Assembly: GCA_038228695.1 (NCBI GenBank)
Contig: JBBRPA010000007.1
Span: 8,263 to 72,262, forward strand
Length of the DNA stretch: 64,000 nt
Source of the DNA: Chthoniobacterales bacterium
GTDB lineage: Bacteria; Verrucomicrobiota; Verrucomicrobiia; Chthoniobacterales; DASVRZ01
Direction: 5' to 3'
Part shown: positions 2,849-42,688 of the stretch, in pieces
Position numbering within the stretch: position 1 is the stretch's first letter
Layout: every line of letters begins with the position of its first letter
Program-made: the position numbers and the translations under genes
Notes under the pieces: generated by a model
The model's input: the letters and a program-made list of their open reading frames with translations, nothing else
What the model was told of the DNA's origin: nothing
Database searches by the model: none

Positions 2849-2862
2849 GGTGATACGAAAGG

Positions 2863-4754: not shown

Positions 4755-4760
4755 GATCGT

Positions 4761-5315
4761 TTATTCGTGAATCAGGGTAATGTCTTTCGCGCCCAAATCG
4801 GAGAGCAATTCGGAGGTGCCTTTTTCGGTGAATTTTGGGTCAGCCGCCTCGATGACCATGATGAAACCATCGTCGCTGAAACGCCCAAAGCCGTCCCAGT
4901 TGAAAACAGGATGATTCCAGCGCGGCATACCATTGAGGAGAAACATTCCGATCACCGTGGTGAAAGCGGAGAAAAGAATGGTTAGCTCAAACATGATCGG
5001 GAAAAACGCCGGCACAGAGAAAAGCCCGAACGGTTTGCCATGGACGATGAGTGGATACAGAAAGGTGGACGGAATGAACTCCAGACACATGGCGGTGATG
5101 AAACCGGTCACACCACCAACGAAAACGATTTTGCCGAGAATGGAATGACCGAGGCCCATGGCGGCGTCCATGCCGTGGACCGGATAGGGCGTGTGGACAT
5201 CCCAGCGGCGAAAGCCTTTGTCGCGGACTTTTTTCGCGGCCTCGTAAATCTCGGCCGCGCTCGAAAAGCGGGCGCCGAGTCCGAAAAGTTTTTTGCGTTC
5301 AGCGATGGCAGCCAT
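4761..5315 (-). CDS. actD: Alternative Complex III subunit ActD (DUF3341-type membrane protein)
   Basis: 184 aa with two central TM helices. It sits between actC and actE. The N-terminal FSSAAEIYEAAKKVRDKGF segment is typical of ActD as I remember the family. Confidence 0.7.
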   Translation of the reverse strand: MAAIAERKKLFGLGARFSSAAEIYEAAKKVRDKGFRRWDVHTPYPVHGMDAAMGLGHSILGKIVFVGGVTGFITAMCLEFIPSTFLYPLIVHGKPFGLFSVPAFFPIMFELTILFSAFTTVIGMFLLNGMPRWNHPVFNWDGFGRFSDDGFIMVIEAADPKFTEKGTSELLSDLGAKDITLIHE

Positions 5316-5317
5316 AA

Positions 5318-6811: not shown

Positions 6812-9800
6812 TAGTGGTGTGCTCCTGCGGGTTCGGAAGTTTTCGCTTTTGCGTTCGGATCGCGGGCCGGACCCGTGCTTCCGGGTGCGCCTTCCCCGTG
6901 GAGCGATTCGTATTCGTCGGGATAAATGTCGGCCACTTTGTCGGCTCCGGGCATTTTCGGATTCGGGTTGCGAATGCGAGCCAGATAACTGGTGCGGGTG
7001 CGGATGTTGAGATACTCGAGCAACCGATAGCGGCGGGGATTGTCCTGCAGTTTTGCGAGAGCGCTGTCCGGGTCGTTTAAGTCGCCGAAGGTGATCGCCT
7101 CAGCCGGGCAGGCCTGTTGGCAAGCGGACTTGATCGTATCAGTCGGGATCTTGAGTTTGTCCGAACCGCCCGCTTTGACGCGTGACGTGATGCGATGCTC
7201 CTCGATGCGTTGGAGGCAATAGGTGCATTTCTCCATCACGCCGCGAATGCGGACGGTGACGTTCGGATTCTTCTGCATCTTGGTCAACTCCTCGGTGCCT
7301 TTCGGAGCGAGAGGTCCGTAATAGAGTCCGCTTGCTTCGGGCAGCGGGCCGACCTTGATTTTTTCGATTGGGCGCTCGTTGTAGTTGAAGAAATTGAAAC
7401 GGCGCACTTTGAACGGGCAATTGTTCGCGCAATAACGCGTGCCGATGCAGCGGTTGTAGGCCATCACGTTGAGGCCGTCTTCGCTGTGAACCGTGGCGTT
7501 GACTGGGCAAACCGTCTCGCAAGGGGCGTTCTCACATTGCTGACAACCCACCGGTTGCATGACCATTTCCGGTTCGGTCTCATCGTGTTCGTCGCCTGAT
7601 GTAGCGAAATAACGATCGATTCGCAGCCAGTGCATTTCGCGGGAATTGTGGACCTGCTCCTTGCCGACAATCGGAATGTTATTCTCCGCTTGGCAGGCGA
7701 TGGTGCAGGCGCTGCAACCGGTGCACGTGTTTAGGTCGATGACCATGCCCCATTGCTCGGGCATGCCGAGTTTCGGAGATTTATAGAGGGAAATATTCGG
7801 CGGAATGTGCCCGTCGATGTGCATCGTCTTGGCAAATGCGGGCTCGGCTTCGAATTTCGCCTTGGTTCCCTCGCGCACGAGGGCGCGTCCCTCCATTTGA
7901 TGATGCTCTTGGGTGAAAGCGAGAAGATGTTGACCTTGGGATTTGACGATTTTCGCGCCGTTAGCGAAACCGGAATCGGTGGAAGTGAGCAGCGCAAAGG
8001 CGTTGAAACCAACCCCAGTGCCGACTTTTCCGGCGGTGCCCGTAGCGTGACCGTAGCCTCGGGCGAGCGTGATCGAATCATCGGCGTGGCCGGGCGAAAC
8101 GAGTACGGGCACTTCGAGGGCGCGGCCTCCGATCGTTAGCTTAACGAGGTCGTTGTCGTTCAGACCGTGGGCCTTAGCGAATTTTCGGGAAATCAGCGCC
8201 GCGTTATCCCAAGTGAGCTTCGAGACCGGGTCGGGCAACTCATGGAGCCAGCCGTTGTCGATGCTGTTGCCGTCAGGGATTTTGTAGTCGGGCGGGAAAA
8301 CAACCTCGATCACTTTCGGATCGGGCAGCGAAATCGGGGCGTCAAAACGGCGGAAGGCGAGATTCGCCGCAGCGGGTTTTCCCTCGGCGTAACCGGTGCG
8401 GAGGAAGTTCGACCAGGTCGTGCCTTGGCCCTGTTTTTCGAAGGTGGCTTTAACCAGCTCCGCGCCGACAGGGACGGGTGAACCAGCAAGAAGCGTGAGC
8501 ACGTCGTTGACCGAGAGACCGCCGAAAAGCGGGAGAATCATTGGCTGGACGGGCACGTAGGTGCCATCCGGGCTGAAGGCGTCGTCCCAACTCTCAAGGA
8601 AATGGGTGCCGGGCACGTGCCATTTGGCAGCTTGGGCGGTCGCGTCGGTCCGCAATCCGACGTGAACGACATCGGGAACAGATTTGAGCAGTTCGCCGAA
8701 TTTTAAGTCTGCTGGCGCAGTGTAAACCGGGTCGGATTCAAGAATGAAAAGCGTGGAGACCAACTTATCTTGGATCGCACGGGTCAAGTCGGTGAGGGTT
8801 CCGGCCGCGGACGCCGCGGTGGCCACTCCGCGAAGGGTGGTGCCGATATTGCCGAGGGCTTGGTTAATAGCGAAACCGAGTGCCTGCACTTCGACCGGCT
8901 GGCGCGGACCGACAATGACGAGGCTGCGTCCTTGGGCAGAGAGAAGGTCGGCGGCGCATTCCGCAATCCATTTCGGATCCACCCCGGGAATCTCCGGAGC
9001 CAGCGTCATGTTCATCCCGAGTTTGGCCGCGAGGGAAACGAGGAAAGCAACAGCTTGGCTGGCCTTCAGGCGCAAGCGGTGATCCGCCATGCCGCCCGTG
9101 ATCGTGTAGCGGTTTTCGACCGCATAGAGGCGGTTCATTTTTTCTTTCGGATCGCGTCGTTTGGAAAATTGCCGAGTCGGCTCCGTCCCAACCGCGTCGA
9201 TCCCAAGGAAATCGGAATCCACCGCGACGACGACGTCTGCTTTCTCAAAATCGTAACTCAGCGCCACGCCTTCGCCGAAGCTCTTCGCCACAGCCTGATC
9301 GAGGACACTGCCGGTCGGATCGTAAACGTGGAATTTTGCGGCGGGATAAATCGCGAGGACTTCTTTCTTAAGGCGCTCCCGAGTCGGCGAATGGCTGACA
9401 TCGGAAAGAAAGGCGAGACCTTCGCCCTTTTTCTCGGCGATTTTCGGGAGGAGATCCTTCAGGTAATTCTCGAAAGAAGCGCGGTCAGATTTTTTCCCGT
9501 TGGCGATAAAAAATTTCGAGCGGTCCGGGTTGTAAAGATCGAGAATGGTAGCCTGCGCTTGAAGATCGGTCGCGCCACTGCTCGCGGGATGAAGCGGGTT
9601 GCCCTCGATCTTGGTCGGACGACCGTCGTGGGTCGTGACCATTAGGGGCATGGCACCGCCGCGGCGGGGCATCGCACTGGCATAAAAGAGAGCTTTCCCG
9701 GGAACGCTCCACTCGACGCTCTTGGAAAGCGCGGCAAATTGGATCTCCGGACGGCGGCAACCACTAAATCCGAAGCCGGCCAGGGCGAGCGACGCTCCCA

Positions 9801-9975
9801 TGATCTGCATGAAACTGCGACGGCTCAGACCATCGATTTCCATCTCCGCGGCACCTTGCGGAAATTCCCGCTCGAGCCAGCCGCGAAATTCCGGTGTGTC
9901 AGCCAGTTCCCCGACGTTCCGCCAATACTTCCGGCCGGTCACGACCTCGGGTGGATGCTGTAAAATACGTTTCAT
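6811..9975 (-). CDS. actB: Alternative Complex III subunit ActB (molybdopterin-oxidoreductase-like domain fused to a 4Fe-4S ferredoxin domain)
   Basis: 1054 aa with a Tat-type signal ([19 protein letters not shown]). Fe-S cysteine clusters lie in the C-terminal third: [36 protein letters not shown] and CTYC. The size is typical of ActB. Confidence 0.9.
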
Positions 9976-9987
9976 GGACCTAAAAAA

Positions 9988-10650
9988 TTAACGGTGACAG
10001 CCGGAGCAGTTTTGCGGCGGGCGGATGGCCCATTCCTTGACGAGTTGGGTGCCCATTTCTACTTGGGCCTTTTGCGGATCTTTGCCTTCCGGCTTCCAAT
10101 CCAGATTGAAGACCTTATCGAGCGGACGGACAAATTTTTCGGGGTTGCGATGGCACTCGAGACACCAGCCCATGCTTTGCGGTTGATCGTGGTAAACGAC
10201 CTCCATGTTATTGATATTACCGTGGCAGCTGACACAACTGACGCCACGGTTCACGTGGACCGAGTGGTTGAAGTAAGCATAGTCCGGCGCGTAGTGAATG
10301 CGCACCCAGGGGAGCGGCTGACCGGTTTCCCAAGCGGTCTTGAGCGCGGCAAACTTCGGGTTATTTTTCTGCACCTGTGAGTGGCAGTTCATGCAAGTTT
10401 GCGCGGTCGGAATGTTGGAGTGGGCCGCCACTTCGACATTCGAGTGGCAATAGCGACAATCCATCCCGAGCTGGTTGACGTGAATGTCGTGCTGAAAAGG
10501 CACTGGCTGCACCGGTTGGTAGCCGACGCGGGTGTATTTCGGAGTGAAATAATACGCCACGCCGCCGGTAATGGCCGCTCCGAGAACAGCAACACAGACG
10601 AGAACTTTAAGAGGCAGCTGATTGGTCCAGCGCGGGAAAATATTGGCCAT
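9988..10650 (-). CDS. actA: Alternative Complex III subunit ActA (pentahaem cytochrome c)
   Basis: 220 aa with an N-terminal anchor. It carries five CxxCH motifs: CRYCH, CMNCH, CVSCH, CLECH and CSGCH. It is the first gene of the operon. Confidence 0.9.
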   Translation of the reverse strand: MANIFPRWTNQLPLKVLVCVAVLGAAITGGVAYYFTPKYTRVGYQPVQPVPFQHDIHVNQLGMDCRYCHSNVEVAAHSNIPTAQTCMNCHSQVQKNNPKFAALKTAWETGQPLPWVRIHYAPDYAYFNHSVHVNRGVSCVSCHGNINNMEVVYHDQPQSMGWCLECHRNPEKFVRPLDKVFNLDWKPEGKDPQKAQVEMGTQLVKEWAIRPPQNCSGCHR

Positions 10651-22573: not shown

Positions 22574-25500
22574 ATGCAAGTAATCGTTGCGGGAATGCAC
22601 CGTTCTGGGACCTCGATGGTCGCCCGGTTGCTGAATCTGATGGGTCTCTATTTCGGCACCGAGGACTCCGGTCCTTTGCCTGAAAGCGATCTTCCCAAGG
22701 GCTCCTGGGAACGGAATGACGTCGTAAAGGTCAACGACCTCCTCCTCGCCACTCAAGGGGCTACATGGCGGAACGTCGTCTCCTTCCAACCCCGTCATAT
22801 TCCAGAGGCGCTCCAACGCGATTTTCAGCGTCGGATCTCGGAGATTGTCCTGCGCATGGAGACGCAGCGTCCTTGGTTCATCAAGGATCCCCGGCTTTCG
22901 CTCACGCTCCCACTCTGGCAGCCCGTTTTGGAGATGCCGGTTTATGTCATTCCCTGTCGCGACCCGCTGGAAATCGCCCTGTCTCTCGAGCGCCGGGACC
23001 GGATTCCGCTCGCTGCCGGGCTGGCTCTCTGGCATCGCTACTCCGCTGATTTGCTGAACGCCACCCGTGGGGGCAAACGGATTTTCGTCAGTCACGCCAA
23101 ACTCATTTCCGACCCGGTCGCAGCGACGGCACAATTGGCCGACGACCTCGAAAAATACGGTGTCCATCTGCCCCGTCGTCCGCTCGATCAGGAGATCGTT
23201 TCCTTCATCGATCCCAAGCTCTATCGGGCCAAGCAATCCAGTAACGGAATGGAGTCGCCGACGCGTCTGTCCCCAGCGCAACAGGCCGTCTGGGAAATGC
23301 TTCAACCCGATTTCGCGGGCGATCGCGATGTAGTAATCGACCCGGAGGAAATAAACCAGACGCTCCGTGAATTCCTTCCTTTCGAACTCGCCCACAGCCA
23401 GATCGAGAAGCTGCAAACTCTGGAATCGGAGAATCAACATCTGCAAAATGCGCTCCTCGCCGAGCAAGAGAAAACTTCTCAGATTCTCGCTGCGCTCCAT
23501 CGCAACGGTGACGTCAAGGCTTCCACTGCCGGGGTGGAAAACGGCAGCGGCAAAACTGCGGCGATGGACGATCCCAACAAAGACGTCATCGACTCAGCGG
23601 ACAGTCGGCTTTTACTCCTCGCCACCATGGTTCGGCGACTTGAGAACGACCTCACTGAGCGGTTCAACAAGATCCAAGTCCGCGCCGCCGAAGCCAGTGA
23701 CACGTTGAACATGCTCGCTCCAATTTTGCGCCCAACCTCCCGCAAAAAAACTGAAAAATACGACGAGATATTTCAGATCCAGCAAATGAAGGATCGGTTG
23801 ATTAAAAAAGAAAAGACCATCATCCGCTTGATGGACTGGCTCGACGCGATGCTCGGCACGATTCCGCTGAGTTCTTCCGCGCGGAAGGCCCGGCGCTATT
23901 ACAAACACTGGCGAAGCCGTTACGAGACGAGCACGCTCAAGCCGCTTCCCGTTTCGCTCTCGCGCCTGAAAGACGACGCGGAAATTCGTGTTCGCAAAGC
24001 CGGCGAAAATCGCACCAGCGCGATCGAGGCCGAAAACACGCTCCGGAAGCTGCTTATCGAGATCGAGCACGACGAGTTTTTTCAAAGCGGAGAATTTTCC
24101 AGAATCTACGGCGTGGCTGGCTTCGATCCCTCCGTCTTGGGCAAACAAGACGATGAGCAAAAAATTGGCCTACGCGATTTCAGCCGCGGCGTCGATCCCG
24201 TCGTTAGCGTCATCATTCCCGTTCACAACCAGATCGCCTACACCTCCAGTTGCCTCCGCTCGCTCTCGGTCGTGAAGGAAAAAACGCCTTTCGAAGTCAT
24301 TGTCGTGGACGATGCCTCCAACGACACCAACTACCAACGACTCGCCGCCATTGAGGGCATTCAAATCATCCGCAACGAGAAAAACCTCGGCTTTCTCGAA
24401 AGTTGCAACAAAGGCGCTCGGGCCGCCCGCGGCCGCTACACGCTGTTTCTAAACAACGACGTGAAGGTTCTGCCGGGCTGGCTGGATTCCCTCGTTCAGA
24501 CGTTCCAGACCCACCCCGATGCCGGACTCGTTGGCTCCAAATTGCTCTATCCCGATGGCAGCTTGCAGGAGGCCGGAGGGATTGTCTGGCGCGACGGCTC
24601 GGGCAGGAATTACGGGCGAAACGACGATCCCGCAAAACCCGAGTATCGGTTTCTCCGCGAGACCGATTACTGTTCCGGCGCGTGCATTATTTTGCCCACC
24701 GAACTTCTGCGCGAAGTGGATTATTTCGACACCCGATTCGTCCCGGCTTATTACGAGGACACCGACCTCGCCTTCAAAGTTCGCGCTGCCGGCAAAAAAA
24801 TTTACTACCAGCCCGCCTCCGAGATTATCCATTTCGAGGGCAAATCCAATGGCACGGACGAATCCTCGGGCGTCAAGCAATTCCAAGTCGTTAACGCGGC
24901 GAAATTCGCTGAAAAATGGAAGGACGTTCTGGATCGAGACCACTTCGATCCCGGCACCAACCCGTTCACCGCGCCGGATCGCGGACGAGGTCCGATCATA
25001 CTCGTGCTGGATCATTATGTGCCCACGCCGGATCACGATGCGGGCTCCCGCAGCACATCTCATTACATTAGGATGTTTCAGGAAATGGGCTTCCGGGTGA
25101 AGTTCATTCCGGCTGATTTTCAGGCACCAGAACCGCACACTAGCCGTCTCGAGCGCTCGGGCGTCGAGGTTCTCCGAGGCAGTTGGTACGAAGAGCATCT
25201 CCGCTCTTGGCTAGTCGAACATCAGGAACATTTCCCATTCATTTTTTCCAATCGCAGCCATATCACCGGGCGCTATCTCGACACCTTCCGGCAGATGCCG
25301 AACACAAAAATCCTCTACTACGGACACGACCTCGGCTCTGTCCGCAACCAGCGGCGTTTTGAACTTAGCCATGACCCGGCGCACCGCGAGAAAGCGGAGA
25401 CCGAAACCCAACTAGAGACGGCTATCTGGGCCCAGGCACACGCCATCTACTACCCGTCGGATACGGAGACCGCGCACGTCCGCACCCGGTTTCCTCAAGC

Positions 25501-26107
25501 CAACGCCCGCACTCTGCCCCTCTATATTCTTGAGCCAAACACTTGGAACTACGCGGATAACCTCGCTTACCGACGCGACCTCATTTTCGTTGGTGGCTTC
25601 GCGCATCCGCCCAATGAAGACGCCGTCCTCTGGTTTCTCGATCATTGCTGGCCAAAGATCGCCAAGACCGTGCCCGCTGCTCGCTTTGTCATCGTCGGGA
25701 GCTTTCCCACCGAGCAAATCCAAGATCGCGCCTCCGAACGGGTGATCGTCACCGGCTGGATTAGCGACGAAAAACTCGCCACCCGCTACCGCGAGTCCCG
25801 GCTCGCCGTCATTCCTCTGCGCTACGGCGCTGGCGTCAAGGGCAAGGTCATCGAGGCTTTGCATCACCATGTGCCTATCGTCATGACGAGCATCGCTGCC
25901 GAGGGACTGCCGGGAGTCGAACAAATCTCCCTCGTGCGCGATGATCCGGAGGCTTTCGCTCAAGGTATCATTGACCTCTATAATAACCCAGCGCTCCTAT
26001 CCAAAATGGGCAATGCCGGCGGCCAATACGTCGCAAAGCATTTTTCAAAAGAGGCGGCAATGAAAGTTCTCCAAGCTGATCTCTCCCAGCACCCAGCAGT
26101 TTCCTAG
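22574..26107 (+). CDS. multidomain glycan-assembly protein: N-terminal sulfotransferase, coiled-coil-rich linker, GT2 glycosyltransferase, GT1/GT4-type glycosyltransferase
   Basis: 1177 aa. Sulfotransferase PAPS motifs: GMHRSGTSMV (5'-PSB) and CRDPLEIALS (3'-PB). Heptad-like stretches span about aa 255-520 (QIEKLQTLESENQHLQNALLAEQEK; VRRLENDLTERFNKIQV; QQMKDRLIKKEKTIIRLMDWL). The GT2 signature is VSVIIPVHNQ...VIVVDDASND...LNNDV. The C-terminal GT1-like segment is GWISDEKLATRYRESRLAVIPLRYGAGVKGKVIEALHHHVPIVMT. Confidence 0.8.
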   Translation: MQVIVAGMHRSGTSMVARLLNLMGLYFGTEDSGPLPESDLPKGSWERNDVVKVNDLLLATQGATWRNVVSFQPRHIPEALQRDFQRRISEIVLRMETQRPWFIKDPRLSLTLPLWQPVLEMPVYVIPCRDPLEIALSLERRDRIPLAAGLALWHRYSADLLNATRGGKRIFVSHAKLISDPVAATAQLADDLEKYGVHLPRRPLDQEIVSFIDPKLYRAKQSSNGMESPTRLSPAQQAVWEMLQPDFAGDRDVVIDPEEINQTLREFLPFELAHSQIEKLQTLESENQHLQNALLAEQEKTSQILAALHRNGDVKASTAGVENGSGKTAAMDDPNKDVIDSADSRLLLLATMVRRLENDLTERFNKIQVRAAEASDTLNMLAPILRPTSRKKTEKYDEIFQIQQMKDRLIKKEKTIIRLMDWLDAMLGTIPLSSSARKARRYYKHWRSRYETSTLKPLPVSLSRLKDDAEIRVRKAGENRTSAIEAENTLRKLLIEIEHDEFFQSGEFSRIYGVAGFDPSVLGKQDDEQKIGLRDFSRGVDPVVSVIIPVHNQIAYTSSCLRSLSVVKEKTPFEVIVVDDASNDTNYQRLAAIEGIQIIRNEKNLGFLESCNKGARAARGRYTLFLNNDVKVLPGWLDSLVQTFQTHPDAGLVGSKLLYPDGSLQEAGGIVWRDGSGRNYGRNDDPAKPEYRFLRETDYCSGACIILPTELLREVDYFDTRFVPAYYEDTDLAFKVRAAGKKIYYQPASEIIHFEGKSNGTDESSGVKQFQVVNAAKFAEKWKDVLDRDHFDPGTNPFTAPDRGRGPIILVLDHYVPTPDHDAGSRSTSHYIRMFQEMGFRVKFIPADFQAPEPHTSRLERSGVEVLRGSWYEEHLRSWLVEHQEHFPFIFSNRSHITGRYLDTFRQMPNTKILYYGHDLGSVRNQRRFELSHDPAHREKAETETQLETAIWAQAHAIYYPSDTETAHVRTRFPQANARTLPLYILEPNTWNYADNLAYRRDLIFVGGFAHPPNEDAVLWFLDHCWPKIAKTVPAARFVIVGSFPTEQIQDRASERVIVTGWISDEKLATRYRESRLAVIPLRYGAGVKGKVIEALHHHVPIVMTSIAAEGLPGVEQISLVRDDPEAFAQGIIDLYNNPALLSKMGNAGGQYVAKHFSKEAAMKVLQADLSQHPAVS

Positions 26108-26111
26108 GCAG

Positions 26112-27230
26112 ATGTTCCGACGAATTTTCTATTGGAACTTTTGGAGGCTGGATTGGTTGAGCGATCATCTTTCGAACCGCCGGAACAATTTCACCCTCAT
26201 CCGCTTCCTGCTCGCAGTGATGGTTCTCTACGGTCACAGCTTCGCCCTCGCGGCAAAATCAAAACCGGGATTACTTACCGAAAATATTTACGGAACCAAC
26301 GAATACATCGGAGGCTTCGCAGTGAGCTGTTTTTTCTTCATCAGCGGATTGTTCATTACCCAGAGCTTTCTGCGAAAAGGAGATTTCCACGATTACCTCT
26401 GGGCCCGAGTCCAACGAATTTATCCAGCGGCGTGGGTGTGCGCACTTTTCTGTGTTCTTGTCATCGGGCCATGTTTTACCAATCTCCGGTTGGTAGATTA
26501 CCTCACTCACGAGGGGACTTTCAAATACCTTGCTGGGCAAACCTTTCTCTGGAAAGTCGAATGGCGCCTTCCCGGTGTTTTTGATACGCATCGGAACAAA
26601 GCCGTCAATGGCTCACTCTGGACCCTAGCCGTGGAATTACGATGTTATCTTATGGTTGGATTGATCGGTGTGCTTGGCGGGCTACGGAAGCGTTCCGTTG
26701 CAAATCTCACCTTGCTCGCCCTGTTAGTCCTCGGACTGTTTTCGCCGAAATCGTTTCCCTTCCTTTTGGACATCCCCAACGCCCGCCAACCGGTAGCCTA
26801 CTTTCTGGCCGGTAGCCTGTGTTTGCTCAACGCGCGACACATCCCACTCCATCCACTAGGCTTACTCTTTCTGTTAACCGGTTGCTTTGCCGTTTACGGC
26901 CATGCCCCCTACGACATTCTCTTCCCAATCACCACTTGCTACGCTCTATTATTTGTCGCCTATCGCTTGCCCTTTTCCCGGTTGAATGACATCGGTGATC
27001 TCTCTTACGGGATGTATATTTACGCCTTTCCTTGCCAGCAAATGTGGCACGCGCTGTTCCCTAGTTGGCAAGGATACCGAAACGCCGCAGCCTCGTTTCC
27101 CACCGCGCTAATACTCGCAGCGCTCTCTTGGTTTTTTATCGAGAAAAAAGCCATGGCGTGGAAAAGAACTAAACCAACAAAACCTGACTCAAAATCAGTC
27201 GCTCCGCCCCAACCAGCGCCTAGTCCATAA
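26112..27230 (+). CDS. acyltransferase family 3 (membrane O-acyltransferase)
   Basis: 372 aa with about 10 TM helices. The N-terminal motif is NNFTLIRFLLAVMVLYGHSF. It starts 4 nt after the upstream gene. Confidence 0.8.
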   Translation: MFRRIFYWNFWRLDWLSDHLSNRRNNFTLIRFLLAVMVLYGHSFALAAKSKPGLLTENIYGTNEYIGGFAVSCFFFISGLFITQSFLRKGDFHDYLWARVQRIYPAAWVCALFCVLVIGPCFTNLRLVDYLTHEGTFKYLAGQTFLWKVEWRLPGVFDTHRNKAVNGSLWTLAVELRCYLMVGLIGVLGGLRKRSVANLTLLALLVLGLFSPKSFPFLLDIPNARQPVAYFLAGSLCLLNARHIPLHPLGLLFLLTGCFAVYGHAPYDILFPITTCYALLFVAYRLPFSRLNDIGDLSYGMYIYAFPCQQMWHALFPSWQGYRNAAASFPTALILAALSWFFIEKKAMAWKRTKPTKPDSKSVAPPQPAPSP

Positions 27231-27270
27231 AAATCCCACCTTTAGTCAACGGAGGTTTGCGGCAACCGCC

Positions 27271-28377
27271 CTATATACCTAATCGATGTACGGCGGCACT
27301 TTTTTTCATCCAAAAGTTAGCGCCAGCATTTGGCAGGCAAACGGGAAATGCCTGAGAATAGAGTTCAGCATATTTTTTAGACATGAGAGTATTAAACCAA
27401 GTGATTTCGTAGTTTGAATTCCCCATCAGAAACGCACGTAGTAAATAAAGCTCGTTCCAGCAGCGACGATCCGCTGCCCATTTCTTAGGATATTCAAAGG
27501 GCCAGAAAATATCATGCACATGAATGATGACCCCGTCCGCGAGACGTGGAAAAATATTAAAAAAAATGTGATTCACATCGCTGCAAAGTTTGGAGACGTG
27601 GGTCGAATCCACAAAAAGAAAATCACCATCCTCCAAGGAATCAAAGCAATCCAGACTAACATCCTGCACTGGCTGTTCATAAATTTTTACCTGATTGTCA
27701 TCAACTCGCAGCAGAGATTTTAGTCGTTCGCAATGCGGTTCGATAAAGGACAAGTGCATTGCGTTTTCAAACCAGACCTGATTGGTGTCGAGCATCATTG
27801 CACTGGAGAAACCCGACCCAATTTCGATGATTCTCCGGGGTTTGAAATGACGGATCATCGCGTTCAAGAAATAGCCATCGCCGTGGCTATACATGCCGTT
27901 CACCCGATGGTAGCGAAAGTCGTCCGTTTTATTTTCTGGAAATGGATAGTCCTCGTGAAATCTTGCCAACAGCGGCATCAAAGCCAGTTGGTGCTCCTCT
28001 CGTAAGTCGATCCCGCACACGTCGTCGTCGTCGGGAGCTTGAATGAATCTTTCCCGAGTCGCGGCGTCAGGAATTGCAGAGTAGAAATGCCCCGCGGGAA
28101 CGAATTCGCGATTTTGCAGCCGAGTCTGATTTTCCCGGCTAGCAGCAACATTCGCAAAGTGCTGCAGGCGAGTCAGTGAGCCGTCGGTGAGCTGGTTGGC
28201 GACTTTTGCAAGTTCCACGGGAGGCGGCAACCTGACCGCCATTTGTTTATATGGAAATTCTACAAAATCGAGGGCACTCAATTCTTCCAGAGGAACTGCT
28301 ATAGATTGCGAATCCTTCAATGTTTTCTTTCTAAAATTCCGATTACAATACTTTCTTAATGTGCGAGGGTTTTGCAA
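27271..28377 (-). CDS. class I SAM-dependent methyltransferase (low-GC gene)
   Basis: 368 aa. It has the SAM motif I RRIIEIGSGFSS, an acidic post-I residue, and FLFVDSTHV...IIHVHD. The GC content is markedly lower than in the neighbouring genes. Confidence 0.65.
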   Translation of the reverse strand: MQNPRTLRKYCNRNFRKKTLKDSQSIAVPLEELSALDFVEFPYKQMAVRLPPPVELAKVANQLTDGSLTRLQHFANVAASRENQTRLQNREFVPAGHFYSAIPDAATRERFIQAPDDDDVCGIDLREEHQLALMPLLARFHEDYPFPENKTDDFRYHRVNGMYSHGDGYFLNAMIRHFKPRRIIEIGSGFSSAMMLDTNQVWFENAMHLSFIEPHCERLKSLLRVDDNQVKIYEQPVQDVSLDCFDSLEDGDFLFVDSTHVSKLCSDVNHIFFNIFPRLADGVIIHVHDIFWPFEYPKKWAADRRCWNELYLLRAFLMGNSNYEITWFNTLMSKKYAELYSQAFPVCLPNAGANFWMKKSAAVHRLGI

Positions 28378-34339: not shown

Positions 34340-34936
34340 ATGTCAGCGCAACCACTTTTAATCGCGACCCGCAACCGCCATAAAACGGAAGAAATCCGGG
34401 AAATGATCGGGGCGGGTTTCTTCGTCGAGGATTTGAACTCAGGCAACGCTTGGCCGGAAATCGAGGAGACGGCGGATTCGTTTCTCGGCAACGCCTCCCT
34501 AAAGGCCCTGGGTATTGCGCGGATTCACCGGGGCCTCGTTCTTTCCGATGATTCCGGACTCGAAGTGGACGCACTGGCCGGCGCACCGGGAGTCCGCTCC
34601 GCCCGCTTCGCCGGGAAGAACGCTTCCGATGCGGACAACCGCGCCCTGCTGTTGGAGCGCCTATCCGATGTTCCCGAGAACCTGCGAACCGCACGGTTTC
34701 GCTGCGTGATGGTTCTCGCTTGTGGCGGGGAAGTTCTTGCTCATTTTTCTGGAGCCGTCGAAGGGGTCATCATCGATCAGGAAAAAGGCACGCAAGGTTT
34801 TGGTTACGACTCCCTTTTTGTTCCAGAGGGACATGGAGAAACCTTCGCTCAGCTTCCCGTGGAAACGAAAAATCAGCTCAGCCACCGGGCGCGAGCCCTC
34901 TCCCAGGTAATCGAGTTTTTGAAGACGCGTGCTTAG
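34340..34936 (+). CDS. rdgB: dITP/XTP pyrophosphatase (RdgB/HAM1 family)
   Basis: 198 aa with the family motifs [41 protein letters not shown] and LSHRARAL. Confidence 0.9.
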
Positions 34937-34965: not shown

Positions 34966-37900
34966 TCAAGCGAGCGTCTTCCGCAAATACGGAGCGATGC
35001 GGCTAGTCTTGTGACGGGCAATCTCCTCGGGCGTGCCGGTGGCAACGACTTCACCGCCCGCCGCGCCGGCTTCCGGGCCGATATCAACGACATAATCCGC
35101 CTCGGCGATGACATTCAAATTGTGTTCAATGACAATGACCGTGTGACCAACATCGACGAGGCGTTGAATGACTCCGAGCAACATTTCGACGTCGGCCATG
35201 TGAAGGCCAATCGTTGGTTCCTCAAGCAAATACAACGTGCTTTTCGCAACCCGCATTTTGCGAATCTTGTTGGTGTGATCGCGCGCTGCACCGAGGCGAA
35301 GTTCGGAAACGAGCTTGAGCCGCTGGGCCTCGCCACCGCTCAGAGTCGGACTGGGCTGCCCGAGTTTCAAATAGCCCAACCCGGTATCGACTAACAATTG
35401 TAGCGTTCGATGGATTTTCTGACTAGTCGAGAAGAATTCAGCCGCTTCCGCGATGGTCATGTTCATGACGTCGCCAATGTTTTTCCCGTTATATTCGACC
35501 TCGCGGGTTTGCGCGTTGTAACGGGTGCCGCCGCAATCCTCACACGGCACGTAGCTCGCGGGGAGGAAGTTCATTTCCATCTTGATCACTCCCTGGCCGG
35601 CACAGGCTTCGCAACGTCCACCCTCGGTGTTGAAAGAGAAACGGGTGTTGGTGTAACCGCGCATCCGCGACATCGGAAGCGATGCAAAAAGCAGGCGTAT
35701 CTCGTCGAAAACTTTAATGTAGGTCGCGGGAATCGAACGGGAAGTTTTACCAATGGGAGACTGATCCACCTCGTAAACCGCCTCGAGATGCTCCGCGCCT
35801 TTGAGCAAGGGATGATCCCCGTTTTTTCGGCGTTTCTTGCTCAGGGCGGCCTCCACCGCGGGTTTCAGCGCGGAGCGCATCAGGGTGCTCTTGCCCGATC
35901 CGGAAATCCCCGTAATTGCGGTCAGGCGTCCGATCGGAAAGCGGACGGTGATGTCCTTCAGATTGTTAACATCGGCCTCAATGAGCTGAAGCCACTGGAG
36001 TTTTTCCATCGGGCGCCGCGCACCCCGCAGGGGATGGCGCATGGGGTGTTTGAGATAGTGGCCGGTCCGAGAATTTTTGCAGGTCTTGATCTGGGCGAGA
36101 GTTCCCTGCGCGACAACCTCGCCGCCGTTCATCCCGGCCCCAGGACCAAGATCGACGATAACATCGGACCGTCGCATCGTTTCCTCGTCGTGCTCGACGA
36201 TGACGAGTGTGTTTCCCTTTGCCCGGAGGGCTTGGAGGGTGTCGAGCAAGGCGTCATTGTCGCGCGGGTGGAGTCCGATGGTGGGCTCATCGAGGACGTA
36301 AAGGACGCCGCGCAGATTGGAGCCAAGTTGGGCGGCCAATCGGATGCGTTGGCTTTCCCCGCCGCTGAGAGTTTTTGCGGAGCGATCCAGTGCTAGATAG
36401 CTGAGGCCAACATTTTGCATGAAACGCAACCGTTGCGTGATCTCGGGCAAAATATCGTCGGAAATAACGCGCTGATCTTTGGCAAAGCGCAATTCCCCAA
36501 TGGTTAGCAGGGAATCGCGCACGCTACCGTGGGCCAATCGGTCGATGGTTAGATCATTGACCCGAACGTGACGAGCGACCTCATTGAGTCGAGCTCCATG
36601 GCAAGCCGTGCACGGCTTGGCTTCCCCGGCCTCGATCCATTCGTGAGCGCGCTCCTCGGCCAGTTCCCGCTCGAGGACCGAGGCATTGTCATCGACCTTA
36701 ACTGAGGCGTGAAATATTTCACCAAACCCGTTGCAGGTCGCACACCAGCCGTGCGGAGAATTAAAGGAGAATAAACGCGGATCTAGTTCCTCAAACGCCC
36801 GCGCACATTTCGGGCAGGTCATCTCGGTGCTCAAAATGGTTTCGGTCCCATCGTGCAAAATTTTGGCGGTGCGTTTACCAACTTTCAGCGCACGCTCGAC
36901 CAGTGGGCGAATTTCGCTTTTTGCAACTTTGGCGAGATCCGCCACGACGACATCGATGGTGTGTTCCTTGAAGCGTTCGAGTTTTTGGAAGTTAGCCGAG
37001 GAGAGGAACTTTCCATCGACGAGCAGCATTTCAAATCCGTCCTTCGCAGCGGCGGCGGCAACGTCGGTGTGGAAACCTTTGCGCGCCTTGACCACCGTGG
37101 CGAGAAGCCAGGTCCTCTTTTTTCCCGCGAGTTTTTCCACCTGAGCGACGATTTTCTGGACGGTCTGACCCTCGACTGGAATGTCGCATTTTGGACAGTA
37201 TTGCGTCCCGAGTTTCGCAAAGAGCAGCCGAAGGAAATGATAGACCTCGGTCACGGTGGCCACGGTGGATTTCCCGCCACCCCGGGTGATCCGCTGCTCG
37301 ATCGCGACGCTGGGGGGCAACCCCTCGATGTGGTCCACGTCGGGTTTTTCCATCTGCCCGACAAACTGCCGTGCGTAGGGCGACATGCTATCGAGAAAAC
37401 GGCGCTGGCCCTCCGCGAAAAGGAGGTCAAAGGCGAGGGTAGATTTTCCGGAGCCGCTTAGTCCGGTGATCGTGATCATCTTTTCCCGAGGGAGCGTGAG
37501 GGTGAAATTTTTTAGGTTGTGCTCCCGAGCTCCATGGATGGTGATGCCGTTGGATTGGGGATTTTTGACTTTTGATTTCCGAATGGGATCCTCGGCGAGT
37601 CGGGTGCCGCCAAGCATCGCGGCGAGGTGACGACCCGTGTGCGATGCGGGGTTTTTCGCGACCTCCTCCGGCGTGCCCTCCGCAACCACCAGACCGCCCT
37701 CCGCGCCCGCCTCGGGGCCGAGATCGATGACGTGGTCGGCAGATTTGATCACCTCCAGATTATGCTCAATAACAATAAGGGTATTTCCTGAGTCCACCAG
37801 TTTTTGAAAGACAGCTAAGAGCAGTGAAACATCGTCGAAGTGCAGGCCGGTGGTTGGTTCGTCAAAGATCAGAAGGGCATTTTGATTGTGCCCAGATTTT

Positions 37901-40503
37901 TCGACGAGATGCCCAACGAGTTTCAGTCGCTGACTTTCTCCGCCACTGAGAACGTTGACCGGCTGCCCTAGTTTCAAATAGCCGAGACCCACACTTTCGA
38001 GGGTGCGAAAAGGTTCGATGATTTTTTTGTTTCCACCGCGCTTACCGAAGAATGTGAGCGCTTCGGTGACGGTCATTTCCAGCACATCGTGAATAGATTT
38101 GCCGTGCCAAGTGATCGCGAGGACGTGCGGCTGATAGCGTTTCCCCTCGCATTCGGAGCAGCGGATAAAGAGGTCGCTGAGAAACTGCATTTCCACTTTT
38201 TCAAATCCGATGCCGTTGCAACGCTGGCAACGACCGGTGCCGCTGTTGAAAGAGAAGGTGCTGGCGGTAAACCCAGCGGCGCGGGCCTCCGGACTTTCGG
38301 CAAATAGCTTCCGCAACTCATCGAAGACGCCGAGATAAACCGCCGGCGTTGAACGCGGGCTGCGAGCGAGCGGCGACTGATCGACCATCACCACCGTCCC
38401 AACGGAATGCGCTCCGGCGATGGCTTTGCACTGGCCGATAATCTCGCCAGTCGGCTCTCCTTTCAAACGGAGAAGGTTCTCATGCAAAACCGTGTGGACG
38501 AGAGTGGACTTTCCGCTGCCGGAGACTCCCGTGACGCAGGTAAGCAGGCCGAGCGGAATTTTTACGTCGATGTTGCGGAGATTGTTCTCGGTGGCACCCT
38601 GCACCGTGAGCCATTGGCCCGGTTTGCGGCGGCGAGCGGGAATGGCGATGGATTTTTTTCCGTAAAGATAGTCGCCGGTGAGCGATCTTTTTTCCCGGAT
38701 GAGTCCGGTCGGTTTTCCGGCAAAGACCAACTCGCCGCCTTCGTTACCCCGACCAGGCCCGATGTCCACTAGATAGTCAGCGGCGCGAATGACAGCTTCC
38801 TCATGCTCGACAACGAGCAGCGTGTTGCCTTTGTCGCGCAGTTGCTCCATCACGGAAATGAGCCGGCTAACGTCGCGGGGATGCAGTCCGACGGTCGGCT
38901 CGTCCATAACGAAGAGAGTGTTAACCAGAGAAGCGCCGAGACAGGTCGTTAGATTGACCCGCTCGACCTCGCCGCCAGAAAGGGTGCGGGTGCTACGATC
39001 AAGATCGAGATAACCGAGCCCGACTTGATCCAGATAGCGTAAGCGGTTGACCACCTCGCCGCGCACCATCGTTCCGGTCCGATCCGTTTCCGGAATCGAG
39101 AATGTCGCGATTAATTCGGCGAGTTCGCGCACCGGAATGCGGTTGAGCTGCGGAAGAGTGTGGCGTTTTTCCGCGGGATCAACGAGGTGATAGTTCAGCG
39201 TCGCGGGCTGGTAACGCCCCCCATGGCAATCGGGACATTCCGTGTAAGCGCGGTATCGGCTGAGAAAAACACGCACATGCATTTTGTAAGCGCGGGCCTC
39301 CATCCAGGAAAAAAATCCTCTCACGCCATACCAAAGATCATTCTGCCAAAGTTCTTCGCTGCCAACATCGAGGTCGCCCTCACCCTCGATAACCCACTTC
39401 TGATCGGAGGCGGGCAGTTCCGCAAAGGGTAGGTAAACATCGATGTCGTTCCGTTTGGCGTGCCGCATCAGGTCGGTCTGGCACTCGCGGGATTGTCCGC
39501 TTTGGAACGGCCGAACCACGCCCTCGGCGATGCTGAGCGATTTGTCCGGGAGCGCCCGGCTCAGATCGAGACCGATAGTGCGACCAAACCCCCGGCAAGT
39601 CGGACACGCGCCGAGCGGATTGTTAAACGAGAATAGCCCGGGAGTCGGCGGACGGATAATTTCGTCGCAATGCGCACAGTGCCAGCCTTTCGATTCGGGA
39701 ATTCGATGCGACGTGACTGGGTCGATCAGGGTGATCTTTCCCTTCCCGAAATTGAGCGCCGTCTCGATCGACTCCGTCAACCGCGATCCCGAGGAAGCCT
39801 CGATAGTGACACGGTCCTGAATCACATCGACGACGCCATGCAATGAGCCTAACGACGGCGGTTCGTCGGTCCGGTGAATCTGGCCATCGCGCCAGACGCG
39901 CAGGTAGCCTTGCGCGTTGAGAAACTGGAAAAAATCGGCTGGCGGCGTCTTCGCGGGAACGGGAATACCGAATGTGACTAAGAGGGTCTGACCGGCGTTT
40001 TCCCTTTGCAACTTCGCCGAGATCGACTGGGCTGTCTCGGGTCGGATCTCGCGGGCGCAGATCGGACAAAAGGCCCGGGCCAGCCTCGGAAAGAGCAACT
40101 TTAGGTAGTCATTAATCTCCGTCATCGTGCCAACCGTCGAGCGGGTGGTGCGGACACCATTTTTCTGCTCGATGGCAATCGCCGGAGGGATGCCGAGAAT
40201 CTCATCGACCCGCGGCTTGTCCATGCGGTCGAGAAACTGCCGGGTGTAGGGCGAGAAAGTCTCGACGTAACGTCGCTGGCCCTCGGCGTAAATAGTGTCG
40301 AAGGCGAGCGACGATTTTCCGGACCCGCTGGGGCCGGTGACGACGATCAGTTGGTTGAGCGGAAGATCAAGATCGATGCCCTTCAGATTATTCTGACGGA
40401 CATTCCGGATCTGGATGGCGTTAACGGACGGGCCAGCCGAAGCGATGCGAGGCACAGACATGGACCTATGAATACGTCTGACGGCGCATTCAGGACGGGC
40501 CAA
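34966..40503 (-). CDS. double-length UvrA-like excinuclease ABC subunit A (two complete UvrA units in tandem, four ABC ATPase modules)
   Basis: 1845 aa. There are four Walker A motifs ([36 protein letters not shown]) and four LSGGE signature motifs. Each half carries its own set of CxxC zinc modules. The second unit begins near [18 protein letters not shown] (about nt 37560). An alternative start is the ATG at 40461. Confidence 0.85.
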
Positions 40504-40556: not shown

Positions 40557-40982
40557 CTACGGTCTCGCGCTCCAATCCTGCAGGGCCAAAGCGACGGACA
40601 GAGCCGCCGGATCGCCAGCCTCAAGCCGGGAGATAAGGGTCTTTTTCGCTTCCGAGACACGATTGCCTTTGGAGGAGGATTTTTCCTTGCGGCTGGCAGG
40701 GATTTCGTAGCTGAAGCGAAGATATTTACGAACATTTTCCGGCGTCTGATCCTCGAGATCGGCCTTGAGAAAAATCATGGCCTGTTGGAGATCAATTTTC
40801 TGGAATCCATTGTAAACCGCGAGTCGTTGGACTTTGGTGAATCCGCGAGTTCCTGCAAAAATGCGGGAGCAGATTGATTGTTCGATTCCGGTGGTCCGTG
40901 CGAATTCAGACTGAGAATGGTCAGCTTGGGTCCACACGCGTAGCGCTTTTTGGAGATAGTTCGTTTTCAATGTTAGATACAA
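40557..40982 (-). CDS. XRE-type helix-turn-helix DNA-binding protein (hypothetical)
   Basis: 141 aa. SQSEFARTTGIEQSICSRIFAG fits an HTH_XRE motif. The 5' end and upstream region are AT-rich. Confidence 0.5.
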   Translation of the reverse strand: MYLTLKTNYLQKALRVWTQADHSQSEFARTTGIEQSICSRIFAGTRGFTKVQRLAVYNGFQKIDLQQAMIFLKADLEDQTPENVRKYLRFSYEIPASRKEKSSSKGNRVSEAKKTLISRLEAGDPAALSVALALQDWSARP

Positions 40983-41185
40983 AATTACTTTTTGCGTCTT
41001 CTATTAAAACATCAAATGGAGAAAATAGTGCAACTATTTATGATAAATTAATTCTTTAGTTGAATTGAACTCGACGGAGAGCGGCTTTTTCTCGTTACCA
41101 CATACTCCGCGCCAACTCCTCGAGTGGCCGTTTTTTTGAGTTGCCAACCCCCCAACCCTAGCGACGCTTAGTTTTTCAATTATCC

Positions 41186-41860
41186 ATGACGACCTCGCAA
41201 CTTTTTCTTTCCCGCCGTTCGGTGCGGGCGTTTTTGCCAAAACTGGTGCCGCGCGAGACGATTGAATCTGTTTTAAAGCATGCCAGCCGTGCGCCCTCGG
41301 GAACAAACACCCAACCGTGGCGCGTCGCTGTTCTCACCGGGCCGACGCTGTCTAGCCTTACTGCCAAGCTGCTAGCGGCCACCGCTGATCCCGAGCGTGA
41401 AACGAAGTATTCCGAGCCGTATGCCTATTATCCCAAGCAATGGGGCACGCCCTACATCGAACGTCGGCGCAAAATCGGCTACGACATGTATGGCCTCCTC
41501 GGCATCGGGCGGCGCGACGTCGAGCGGATGCGCGAGCAATGGAACCGCAACTTTGAATTTTTTGGCGCGCCGGTTGGACTCATGTTCACGATCGACCGCG
41601 TGATGGAGCAGGGAAGCTGGCTGGATTACGGGATGTTCATTCAGAGCCTGATGCTCGCCGCCCGCGCGGAGGGCCTCGATACCTGCCCGCAGGCCGCCTT
41701 CAACGAATTTCACTCCATCATTCTTCCGCACATCGGTGCCGGGGAAAACGAAACCCTCGTCTGCGGCATGTCGCTGGGTTTTGCTGATGAGTCCGCGCCA
41801 GTCAATGCGCTGCAAACCGAGCGCGCTTCTTTGGAGGAGTTTGTTAGGTTTCTCGATTGA
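41186..41860 (+). CDS. nitroreductase family protein
   Basis: 224 aa. The N-terminal RRSVRAFLPK.VPRE.IE.VL..A.RAPSG.N.QPWR segment is the nitroreductase signature. Confidence 0.85.
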   Translation: MTTSQLFLSRRSVRAFLPKLVPRETIESVLKHASRAPSGTNTQPWRVAVLTGPTLSSLTAKLLAATADPERETKYSEPYAYYPKQWGTPYIERRRKIGYDMYGLLGIGRRDVERMREQWNRNFEFFGAPVGLMFTIDRVMEQGSWLDYGMFIQSLMLAARAEGLDTCPQAAFNEFHSIILPHIGAGENETLVCGMSLGFADESAPVNALQTERASLEEFVRFLD

Positions 41861-42332
41861 GAGCCGACTCCAGCCCGAGGAGAAAACGTTTCCGTTCCAG
41901 CCCGCCGCCGTAACCGGTTAGGGAGCCGTTTTTACCGATGACACGGTGGCACGGAATGACAATCGAAAGCGGATTAGCTCCATTTGCTAAGCCGACCGCA
42001 CGAACGGCTTTCGGACGGCCAATCCGCCGCGCTTGCTCTCCGTAGCTGATGGTTTCACCGAAAGGGATTTCCAGCAAGGCGCGCCAAACGCTGAGTTGGA
42101 ATGGCGTCCCTTTTGGATCCAGCGGGAGATCAAATTTTTTCAGACCGCCCGCAAAATAGGCAGCAAGCTGGGAGCGAGCTTCTCTGAAACGGGAGTCATC
42201 GGCGACGCTGTCTGCGGGGATGGGATTGGGGTGGGTGTCCATGAAAATGCCGGTTAGTCCTTGCGCCGAGGCTACGAGGGTAAGCAGACCGATCGGTGAT
42301 GGAATGAGGCAGTGGTGGTGGATTGTTTTCAT
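41844..42332 (-). CDS. ogt: methylated-DNA--protein-cysteine methyltransferase (Ogt)
   Basis: The active site is IVIPCHRVIGKNGSLTGYGGGLERKRFLL (PCHRV). I chose the ATG at 42332 (MKTIHHH), which overlaps the upstream gene's stop as ATGA. Confidence 0.9.
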   Translation of the reverse strand: MKTIHHHCLIPSPIGLLTLVASAQGLTGIFMDTHPNPIPADSVADDSRFREARSQLAAYFAGGLKKFDLPLDPKGTPFQLSVWRALLEIPFGETISYGEQARRIGRPKAVRAVGLANGANPLSIVIPCHRVIGKNGSLTGYGGGLERKRFLLGLESALNRET

Positions 42333-42688
42333 GTGAGTGATTGCCAGAGGTACAGGGTGGCATAGGCGCGCCAAAGCCGCCATTTTTCGGCGAGGGCGTT
42401 GATCTGGTCAAGACAAGGAGTCGGGGTGGAGATTTTTTTGCCAAACTGGCACGCGAAAGATTCCGACGGAGCGAGTTCGGGACGACAGCGAAGGCAGGGA
42501 CGAAAGCCGGCCTCTTCGGCGGCAGCGGCGACTGCAAAAAGAGTGCCGGAAGCAGCCTTCGCCTTACGAGCCGGGAAAACCGGGCGGCAGTAAATCCCCG
42601 TCGTTGAAACTCCGACGAAAAACAATCCGTCAAAGCGCGCGGCGCGGGCTTGGAGAGCGCGATAACAAGTATCAAAATCGGGAATCAC
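42329..42688 (-). CDS. stand-alone Ada N-terminal zinc-binding (methylphosphotriester repair)-like domain protein
   Basis: 119 aa. RFDGLFFVGVSTTGIYCRPVFPAR...AGFRPCLRCRP matches the Ada_Zn_binding pattern. The second Zn-ligand Cys position (CRPSCxAR in E. coli Ada) reads CRPVFPAR here. There is no AraC HTH domain. Confidence 0.65.
   Translation of the reverse strand: MIPDFDTCYRALQARAARFDGLFFVGVSTTGIYCRPVFPARKAKAASGTLFAVAAAAEEAGFRPCLRCRPELAPSESFACQFGKKISTPTPCLDQINALAEKWRLWRAYATLYLWQSLT

Follow-up and report, generated by a model that had tools for sequence, protein, structure and literature searches.

Analysis of a 64,000-nucleotide stretch of Chthoniobacterales DNA (from contig JBBRPA010000007.1; the whole stretch is called the window below) identified on its reverse strand a gene for a double-length UvrA, whose product carries two UvrA units in one polypeptide. 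We propose that the two halves are anciently diverged UvrA paralogues that became fused head to tail, and that the protein serves as the damage sensor of the cell's excision repair, functioning as a tethered pseudo-heterodimer of unit 1 (alpha) and unit 2 (beta), names coined in this analysis; to this joint proposal, which is built on sequence comparison, we assign a probability of about 0.6. It is carried by complementary losses, alpha and beta having lost different DNA-contact elements, and by the occurrence of the two units as separate genes in some relatives. The losses show in the sequence the asymmetric specialization that an earlier reading of the letters (the first-pass annotation) had thought possible.

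Architecture and asymmetry of the tandem UvrA

The open reading frame (ORF) runs without interruption over 34966..40503 (-) and comprises 1845 codons if the TTG at 40503 is taken as the start. Because an identical public protein, P0001, is 1831 amino acids (aa) long, annotation places the start at the ATG of codon 15 (window position 40461); residue numbers in this text (aa 15-1845) nevertheless count from the upstream TTG. The gene and its elements, including the three zinc modules (Zn1 to Zn3) of each unit, are located as follows.

34966..40461 (-): tandem UvrA, entire coding sequence, 1831 aa counted from the ATG at codon 15 (40461), stop codon included
37615..40461 (-): unit 1 (alpha), aa 15-963, all UvrA domains present, the insertion domain among them
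40312..40335 (-): Walker A of the unit 1 proximal site, GPSGSGKS, aa 57
39667..40068 (-): unit 1 Zn1, C146/C149 with C276/C279, enclosing the UvrB-binding domain (PF17760, 56.1 bits)
39226..39606 (-): unit 1 Zn2, C300/C303 with C423/C426, enclosing the 119-aa insertion (DNA-binding) domain (PF17755, 35.2 bits)
38506..38529 (-): Walker A of the unit 1 distal site, GVSGSGKS, aa 659
38257..38313 (-): unit 1 signature-II DNA-binding patch, aa 731-749, R731 kept and positions 741/743/749 reading R/A/T in the window protein
38149..38229 (-): unit 1 Zn3 with beta-hairpin, CQRC...CSEC, from the motif scan
37546..37614 (-): inter-unit linker, aa 964-986, 23 aa
34969..37545 (-): unit 2 (beta), aa 987-1845, a UvrA unit in which the insertion domain is missing
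37441..37464 (-): Walker A of the unit 2 proximal site, GLSGSGKS, aa 1014
36805..37197 (-): unit 2 Zn1, C1103/C1106 with C1230/C1233, enclosing the UvrB-binding domain (PF17760, 72.8 bits)
36601..36744 (-): unit 2 Zn2, C1254/C1257 with C1298/C1301, enclosing a 40-aa acidic stub, no PF17755 match
35887..35910 (-): Walker A of the unit 2 distal site, GISGSGKS, aa 1532
35641..35697 (-): unit 2 signature-II DNA-binding patch, aa 1603-1621, with R1603, R1613, R1615 and R1621 all present
35533..35613 (-): unit 2 Zn3 with beta-hairpin, CEAC...CEDC, from the motif scan
35215..35235 (-): unit 2 distal Walker B, LYLLEEP, Glu replacing the usual Asp

Scored separately against TIGR00630 (cut-off 729.8), unit 1 reaches 987 bits and unit 2 1052 bits, and the whole chain scores 2080 bits against the stricter NF001503 (cut-off 1147), which neither unit reaches alone. 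Both units match solved UvrA structures (E ~1e-240 to 1e-253). Unit 1 aligns end to end with E. coli UvrA (residues 1-940) at 41.7% identity, and unit 2 aligns at 48-50% identity in two blocks (E. coli residues 4-284 and 404-940), skipping residues 285-403. A motif scan located, in addition to the four Walker A motifs, four LSGGE signatures (aa 508, 852, 1379 and 1721) as well as Walker B motifs, H-loops and Q-loops, four of each, giving two ABC modules per unit. The one 1845-aa protein with two full UvrA units, four Walker A motifs and four LSGGE signatures that the first-pass annotation had described is thus borne out, as are its diverged halves (37% identity between unit 1 and unit 2) and its junction near nucleotide 37560, which falls within the linker. 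An in-frame ATG lies just ahead of this linker, at 37615-37617 (codon 963), where it encodes the Met of the conserved C-terminal motif AAML of unit 1, and could in principle permit separate translation of unit 2.

Twelve CxxC motifs, six per unit and all at expected positions, make up three four-cysteine zinc modules in each unit. Zinc modules in each half had been proposed before and stand, although the cysteines group differently from that proposal: in unit 1 CPIC belongs with CAHC (Zn1), CPTC with CPDC (Zn2) and CQRC with CSEC (Zn3), and unit 2 is organized alike. The UvrB-binding region proposed for each half is likewise found, both PF17760 scores exceeding the Pfam threshold of 23.3 bits, with the competence of these predicted domains judged by Pfam scores only.

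Canonical class I UvrA, as in E. coli, Geobacillus, Thermotoga, Mycobacterium and C. thermocellum, is a single chain of ~940 aa acting as a homodimer (UvrA2), and the two units of the tandem protein correspond in content to one such dimer. In contrast to class I UvrA, the protomers of the 1831-aa tandem are covalently joined and non-identical, and between them they have only one insertion domain, one intact signature-II patch and one distal Walker B reading EEP. Both units have the ABC modules (with the exception of the Glu in the fourth Walker B), the three zinc modules and the predicted UvrB-binding domain of class I proteins. However, the class I insertion domain is present in unit 1 and missing from unit 2, whereas the class I signature-II patch is complete in unit 2 and incomplete in unit 1.

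This asymmetry is a property of the family, as judged from 120 full-length relatives (the best database clusters, 61-85% identity), to which all family counts, charges and identities given here refer. In the window protein PF17755 is detected in unit 1 only, the Zn2 cysteine pairs being 119 aa apart in unit 1 and 40 aa apart in unit 2, and positions 308-426 of PDB entry 9gxk are without a counterpart in unit 2, which is ~90 aa shorter than unit 1 because the insertion domain is missing. The Zn2-enclosed segment has a mean net charge of -8.9 (range -14 to -4) in the unit 2 stub and of -0.5 in unit 1. The absence of the insertion domain from unit 2 had escaped the first-pass annotation, as had the LYLLEEP of the fourth Walker B.

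The signature-II patch has the opposite distribution. In unit 1 only R731 is conserved across the family, position 741 being basic in 18 of the 120 relatives and positions 743 and 749 being R/K in none, whereas the R-R-R-R set of unit 2 is retained in 119-120 of 120. The counterparts of these residues in Mycobacterium tuberculosis UvrA, R725, K735, R737 and R743, have been reported as essential if DNA is to be bound (PMC3167621). By alignment, three of the four basic signature-II residues that canonical UvrA needs to bind DNA are gone from alpha, and beta keeps all four.

The units differ further at the distal Walker B, which reads DEP in unit 1 and in unit 2 carries Glu for Asp in every relative (xLLEEP in 119/120). 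No Walker B reading EEP was seen in the sampled canonical UvrAs of single length, and in the sampled double UvrAs a unit 2 with EEP at its distal Walker B was confined to the verrucomicrobial lineage. The position equivalent to Y62 of Ct-UvrA is Tyr in alpha and Phe in beta, each in 120/120. At the same time each of the four ATP sites keeps its Walker A lysine, Q-loop, signature, catalytic glutamate and H-loop histidine in 120/120; the half without intact ATPase motifs for which the first-pass annotation had allowed was not encountered. Within the family, sequences of unit 1 are on average 73% identical in pairwise comparison and those of unit 2 76%, which indicates that both units are under similar purifying selection and evolve equally slowly. 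Given this equal rate and the retention of all ATPase motifs, neither half is decaying.

The verrucomicrobial alpha-beta group can be recognized by an alpha with an insertion domain and without the GRFSFN arginine, and by a beta with a 28-50-aa stub, the R-R-R-R patch and EEP. The window protein shows all of these traits, and they recur in free-standing alpha and beta genes.

Fused and split forms among relatives

In one verrucomicrobial subclade, several members of which are named Pedosphaera or Limisphaerales, alpha and beta are encoded by separate genes. At locus L071 an alpha-type gene (geneA, 1070 aa) and a beta-type gene (geneB, 964 aa) are 0.9 kb apart and enclose a BON-domain lipoprotein gene, and on a 766-kb and a 275-kb contig the alpha (1102 and 1079 aa) and beta (878 and 940 aa) genes are on the same strand, 2.7-3.5 kb apart, separated by a molybdopterin oxidoreductase gene and small ORFs. 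Free-standing alpha proteins form ~25 clusters (1011-1149 aa) from independent sources, and a free-standing beta gene occurs at six loci with no alpha gene within 6 kb. The free beta proteins have a Zn2 span of 35 aa with acidic charge, EEP and the R-R-R-R patch, and the free alpha proteins have the stripped patch. On two long Pedosphaera-like contigs a gene of the Uma2 family (putative restriction-endonuclease-like; L083 18647-19117 and L084 19627-20097) comes after the free beta gene and overlaps it by 4 nt; in its place L067 and L071 have an ORF of 156-157 aa.

A neighbour-joining tree was built from 92 units and 841 columns with 100 bootstraps. The split alpha and split beta proteins each form a clade with 100% bootstrap, both clades are nested among fused forms, and L043, which lies within the split-gene clade, is fused. 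All verrucomicrobial beta units and free beta genes group together at 77%. As a rule, proteins encoded by a fused gene in one set of genomes and by separate, linked genes in another interact physically. The alternation between fused and split-linked genes supports an alpha-beta pair as the working unit, as does the predicted composition of the other pairings: an alpha-alpha pair would be without an intact signature-II patch and a beta-beta pair without an insertion domain.

Tandem UvrAs are widespread, and the window protein has more than 120 relatives of full length. The best 120 database clusters are all full-length (1815-1977 aa) and come from contigs of up to 5.6 Mb; the nearest named relatives (82-85% identity) are Chthoniobacterales (Verrucomicrobiota), and the fused form is also present in the isolates Terrimicrobium sacchariphilum and Rubritalea marina DSM 17716. 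Patterns specific to the window protein, scanned against a single genome for each species, yielded at least 596 related loci. ORFs of double length that hold four Walker A motifs were found in Chthoniobacterales, Akkermansiaceae, Opitutales and R. marina DSM 17716, in Desulfobacterales, Binatia, Bacteroidales and Fibrobacteraceae, and further in Latescibacterota, Poribacteria, Pirellulales and Gemmataceae. Of the best 150 representatives in a library clustered at 50% identity, most exceed 1500 aa, and the representatives include the 1775-aa UvrA of Candidatus Clavichlamydia salmonicola (P0210). NCBIfam contains a double-UvrA model, NF001885, of 1809 positions. The databases thus contain the tandem architecture already, simply named "excinuclease ABC subunit UvrA".

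Tandem proteins of the alpha-beta kind (P0393 / P0124 and P0197) also bear the labels Hydrogenophilus islandicus (RefSeq WP_459829375.1, 1844 aa) and Candidatus Kinetoplastibacterium crithidii (1809 aa, from a contig of 817 kb), which suggests either transfer between phyla or mislabelled bins.

The chlamydial double UvrAs are similar to the window protein in having two units in one chain, one of them without an insertion domain, and in being annotated as plain UvrA (CT333, 1786 aa; P0210, 1775 aa; NF001885). The Chlamydiae belong, as do the Verrucomicrobia, to the PVC (Planctomycetes-Verrucomicrobia-Chlamydiae) group. However, the order is reversed in Clavichlamydia, where the first unit is without an insertion domain and the second has one, and the chlamydial second unit has degenerate motifs (LSNGE, IIEEP, IDHD) and no recognizable Zn1, in contrast to the consensus motifs found in both units of the window protein. 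In the tree the units of the chlamydial type fall into separate clades (bootstrap 93% and 97%). Membership of the window protein in NF001885 was rejected on score (1219 bits against a cut-off of 3054); the model is narrow, since even the Clavichlamydia protein P0210 reaches only 1249 bits.

The tandem proteins of Planctomycetes, Latescibacterota, Poribacteria, Bacteroidales and Fibrobacteraceae are likewise double-length, with four ATP sites and two UvrB-binding domains, and those of the latter three groups have, as the window protein has, lost the insertion domain in unit 2. They differ from the window protein in having an R-K/R-R-R patch and a DEP Walker B in both units. The planctomycete, latescibacterotal and poribacterial units cluster together near canonical UvrA (67% bootstrap), which, taken together with the full patches in both units, suggests a separate and younger duplication. 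In several sequence-distinct tandem groups exactly one unit, in either order, has a Zn2 span of <=50 aa; the loss of one insertion domain is therefore recurrent, a pattern to which convergence and common descent both fit on the tree. Planctomycete tandem proteins (Pirellulales, Gemmataceae) carry an additional 370-400 aa at the C-terminus beyond unit 2 with no Pfam match (L079 12160-13281, L081 12016-13221). P0232, a single-length UvrA of 875 aa, has 19 aa between its Zn2 cysteine pairs and a full R-K-R-R patch and groups with canonical UvrAs; outside the alpha-beta lineage, too, there are therefore free-standing UvrAs that have no insertion domain.

The Desulfobacterales and Binatia units join the verrucomicrobial alpha and beta units with weak bootstrap values (55% and 43%). 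Their alpha-type units are also without the GRFSFN arginine, a shared loss that is suggestive, though not proof, of a common origin of these double UvrAs.

Functional model and competing explanations

According to the literature, the proximal ATP site of UvrA is formed by the Walker motifs of nucleotide-binding domain I (NBD-I) and the distal site by those of NBD-II, and two insertion domains clamp straight DNA at initial binding. The distal site has been tied to lesion discrimination, its hydrolysis being dispensable for UvrB loading, and UvrA2B2 and UvrA2B1 are both given as estimated stoichiometries (PMC7835731). In the proposed pseudo-heterodimer, alpha and beta would pair through their ATP-binding-I domains as the protomers of canonical UvrA2 do, and one chain would be the equivalent of UvrA2, with four ATP sites and two UvrB docking sites. 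The 23-aa flexible linker would merely tether the partners, giving a 1:1 stoichiometry with no alpha-alpha or beta-beta pairs. Scanning of DNA, sensing of distortion and loading of UvrB would proceed as in ordinary nucleotide excision repair, by a pseudo-dimer that holds a single insertion domain and a single full signature-II patch. Such a sensor would have a fixed polarity and orientation on DNA, and one of its two lesion-discriminating distal sites would be kinetically altered, so that the distal sites would differ. A division into one damage-sensing and one UvrB-loading half, which the first-pass annotation had offered as an example, is not what the domain content suggests, as both units have UvrB-binding domains and some DNA-contact elements.

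Some heterodimeric or internally duplicated ABC proteins, for example heterodimeric ABC exporters, carry one non-consensus ATP site. The tandem UvrA may be analogous to these, an ABC module having been duplicated and fused or paired before one nucleotide site diverged asymmetrically, but the exporters are membrane transporters, and in the tandem UvrA the asymmetry extends to the DNA-contact elements as well.

Somewhat short of even odds, in our estimation, is the broader generalization that Verrucomicrobia, and probably also Desulfobacterales, Binatia and some Proteobacteria with the alpha-type loss of the GRFSFN arginine, use an obligately heterodimeric UvrA, in which the DNA contacts would be divided (the clamp on alpha, the signature-II patch on beta), one distal site would be retuned and polarity would be fixed whether the sensor is made as one chain or as two.

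Several points weigh against the pseudo-heterodimeric repair sensor. Neither uvrB nor uvrC was present among the long ORFs scanned in the 64-kb window; taken alone, the units fall just under the NF001503 cut-off (1005 and 1081 bits); the deep nodes of the tree are weak (43-55% bootstrap); and most relatives are metagenome bins whose labels are uncertain. Moreover, at L067 (9180-9260) the alpha and beta ORFs are in different frames with a 4-nt overlap (ATTTGA) directly past a G6/A4 homopolymer run, and this split could be a one-base sequencing or assembly error in a fused gene, or could reflect translational coupling.

Of the alternative explanations, one holds that the tandem protein is an accessory paralogue acting outside UvrABC repair, for example by removing DNA-bound drugs like the class II proteins DrrC and Ecm16, with a canonical uvrA elsewhere in the genome carrying out the repair. 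Accessory UvrA paralogues are indeed common and some act without UvrB or UvrC (PMC9328131), and neither unit of the tandem protein is fully canonical, the patch being stripped in unit 1 and the insertion domain missing from unit 2. The class II proteins (D. radiodurans UvrA2, DrrC, Ecm16) also resemble the tandem in being UvrA-derived ABC ATPases that depart from the canonical domain set. However, class II UvrA is defined by having lost both the UvrB-binding domain and Zn1 and works independently of UvrB and UvrC (PMC9328131), whereas both tandem units keep Zn1 and a UvrB-binding domain that scores above the Pfam threshold, and the loss in the tandem is that of the insertion domain, in beta only. 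A class II-like, UvrB-independent role is therefore unlikely, and the same retention of Zn1 and the UvrB-binding domain speaks against the role outside excision repair, such as drug resistance, that the first-pass annotation had also raised. The family is, moreover, near-universal over the verrucomicrobial orders and present in isolates, its context is that of housekeeping genes with no biosynthetic cluster, and the annotated uvrA of C. trachomatis is itself double-length (PMC6686042). No second uvrA was found among the long ORFs scanned in the 64-kb window.

We consider it equally unlikely that pairing is intermolecular, alpha of one chain joining beta of another to give a dimer of tandems with eight ATP sites or open oligomers. 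Such an arrangement would be favored by the linker of the window protein, which at ~23 aa belongs to the shortest class in the family and must connect a C-terminus located in the distal ATP-binding-II domain with an N-terminus located in the ATP-binding-I domain, which forms the interface (roles of the domains from PMC12796330). Against this, we estimate that a flexible linker of 23 aa reaches ~80 A. The linker region varies freely in length, being up to ~63 aa longer in relatives, and is poorly conserved, as expected of a simple tether, and the existence of free alpha and beta proteins fits a closed 1:1 pair.

More improbable still is a scaffold, in which one half would be a catalytically dead pseudo-enzyme that only stabilizes or regulates the other. 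The EEP in place of DEP at the fourth-site Walker B, the variant signatures (LSGGEVER) and missing DNA-binding arginines of unit 1, and the truly degenerate second unit of the chlamydial type would all be compatible with a scaffold, but the conservation of the ATPase residues at all four sites and the equally slow evolution of both units, described above, argue against it.

Lastly, the tandem uvrA is a genuine single gene of a Chthoniobacterales-like verrucomicrobium and not an assembly artefact: although the adjacent separate genes of the split subclade show that a two-gene state, ancestral or derived, is possible, the chance that two neighbouring uvrA genes were falsely joined by assembly or annotation is negligible, given that neither a stop nor a frameshift was seen in the ORF at the junction of the units, that two assemblers yielded the identical protein (P0001, in a 76-kb NCBI contig and in a Logan contig of SRR19962015, which are independent assemblies), that the reading frame is unbroken in 120/120 relatives examined and in isolate genomes, and that G+C is uniform along the whole gene.

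Gene neighbourhood and wider meaning

The neighbours of the tandem uvrA are housekeeping and repair genes, namely leuS and genes for Ham1/RdgB, Ogt and an Ada zinc domain. Features of the window outside the gene are the following.

41844-42688 (-): gene for an Ada zinc-binding domain and gene for an O6-alkylguanine transferase (Ogt type), with a 4-nt overlap, ~1.4 kb upstream of uvrA
34340-34936 (+): gene for a Ham1/RdgB-type non-canonical NTP pyrophosphatase, abutting the 3' end of uvrA
40557-40778 (-): 73-aa ORF, 95 nt upstream of the uvrA ATG, no Pfam match, behind an AT-rich stretch at ~40960-41080
292-10650 (-): co-oriented gene run with a 1054-aa protein carrying 4Fe-4S dicluster domains, an NrfD-family membrane protein and a COX1 haem-copper oxidase subunit
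22574-28377: fusion of sulfotransferase, GT2 and GT1 glycosyltransferase (1177 aa), followed by a low-G+C stretch

The Ada, Ogt and Ham1/RdgB genes form a loose cluster for DNA damage and the nucleotide pool, and interaction of UvrA with alkyltransferase-like proteins has been mentioned (PMC7835731). The 73-aa ORF may be co-transcribed with the tandem uvrA. Farther away, the 292-10650 run looks like an alternative-complex-III plus oxidase cluster, and the 22574-28377 region, whose low-G+C stretch (0.485 at 26-28 kb, ~0.57 elsewhere) holds acyltransferase-3 and methyltransferase genes, may be an acquired polysaccharide-modification island. The verrucomicrobial LexA box (TGTTC-N4-GAACA) is absent upstream of the tandem uvrA, and its three one-mismatch matches in the window are at chance level.

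The first-pass annotation had described double-length UvrAs as noticed in genome surveys and not known to be biochemically characterized, and the findings agree with this: the uvrA gene of C. trachomatis (ct333) is 5361 bp long and encodes 1786 aa (PMC6686042), the NCBIfam model exists, and no biochemical study of a tandem UvrA was found in the searchable literature. Beyond that gene length, no description of a natural tandem UvrA (class III, duplicated or fused) was found in the searchable literature. A duplicated-UvrA class is said to be listed by Goosen and Moolenaar (2008) or by Timmins et al. (2009). The fusion itself is known from annotation, and what does not seem to have been described in the searchable literature is the complementary asymmetry of alpha and beta together with the alternation of fused and split forms.

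Canonical UvrA is a symmetric homodimer, which makes it hard to assign the roles of each protomer, insertion domain and ATP site, or to decide between the loading of one and of two UvrB. A natural tethered alpha-beta UvrA is a ready-made "half-site mutant", in which each site can be mutated independently within one polypeptide, and the Pedosphaera-type split genes offer the matching two-subunit version. If these genomes have a canonical uvrA as well, the finding shrinks to a further accessory paralogue. If the alpha-beta pair is the sole UvrA, however, a large part of the bacterial tree, including the PVC group, Akkermansia-related gut bacteria and the abundant soil Chthoniobacterales, would sense DNA damage asymmetrically, and if the heterodimeric reading is true, the recurrent loss of one insertion domain would mean that a UvrA dimer needs only one.

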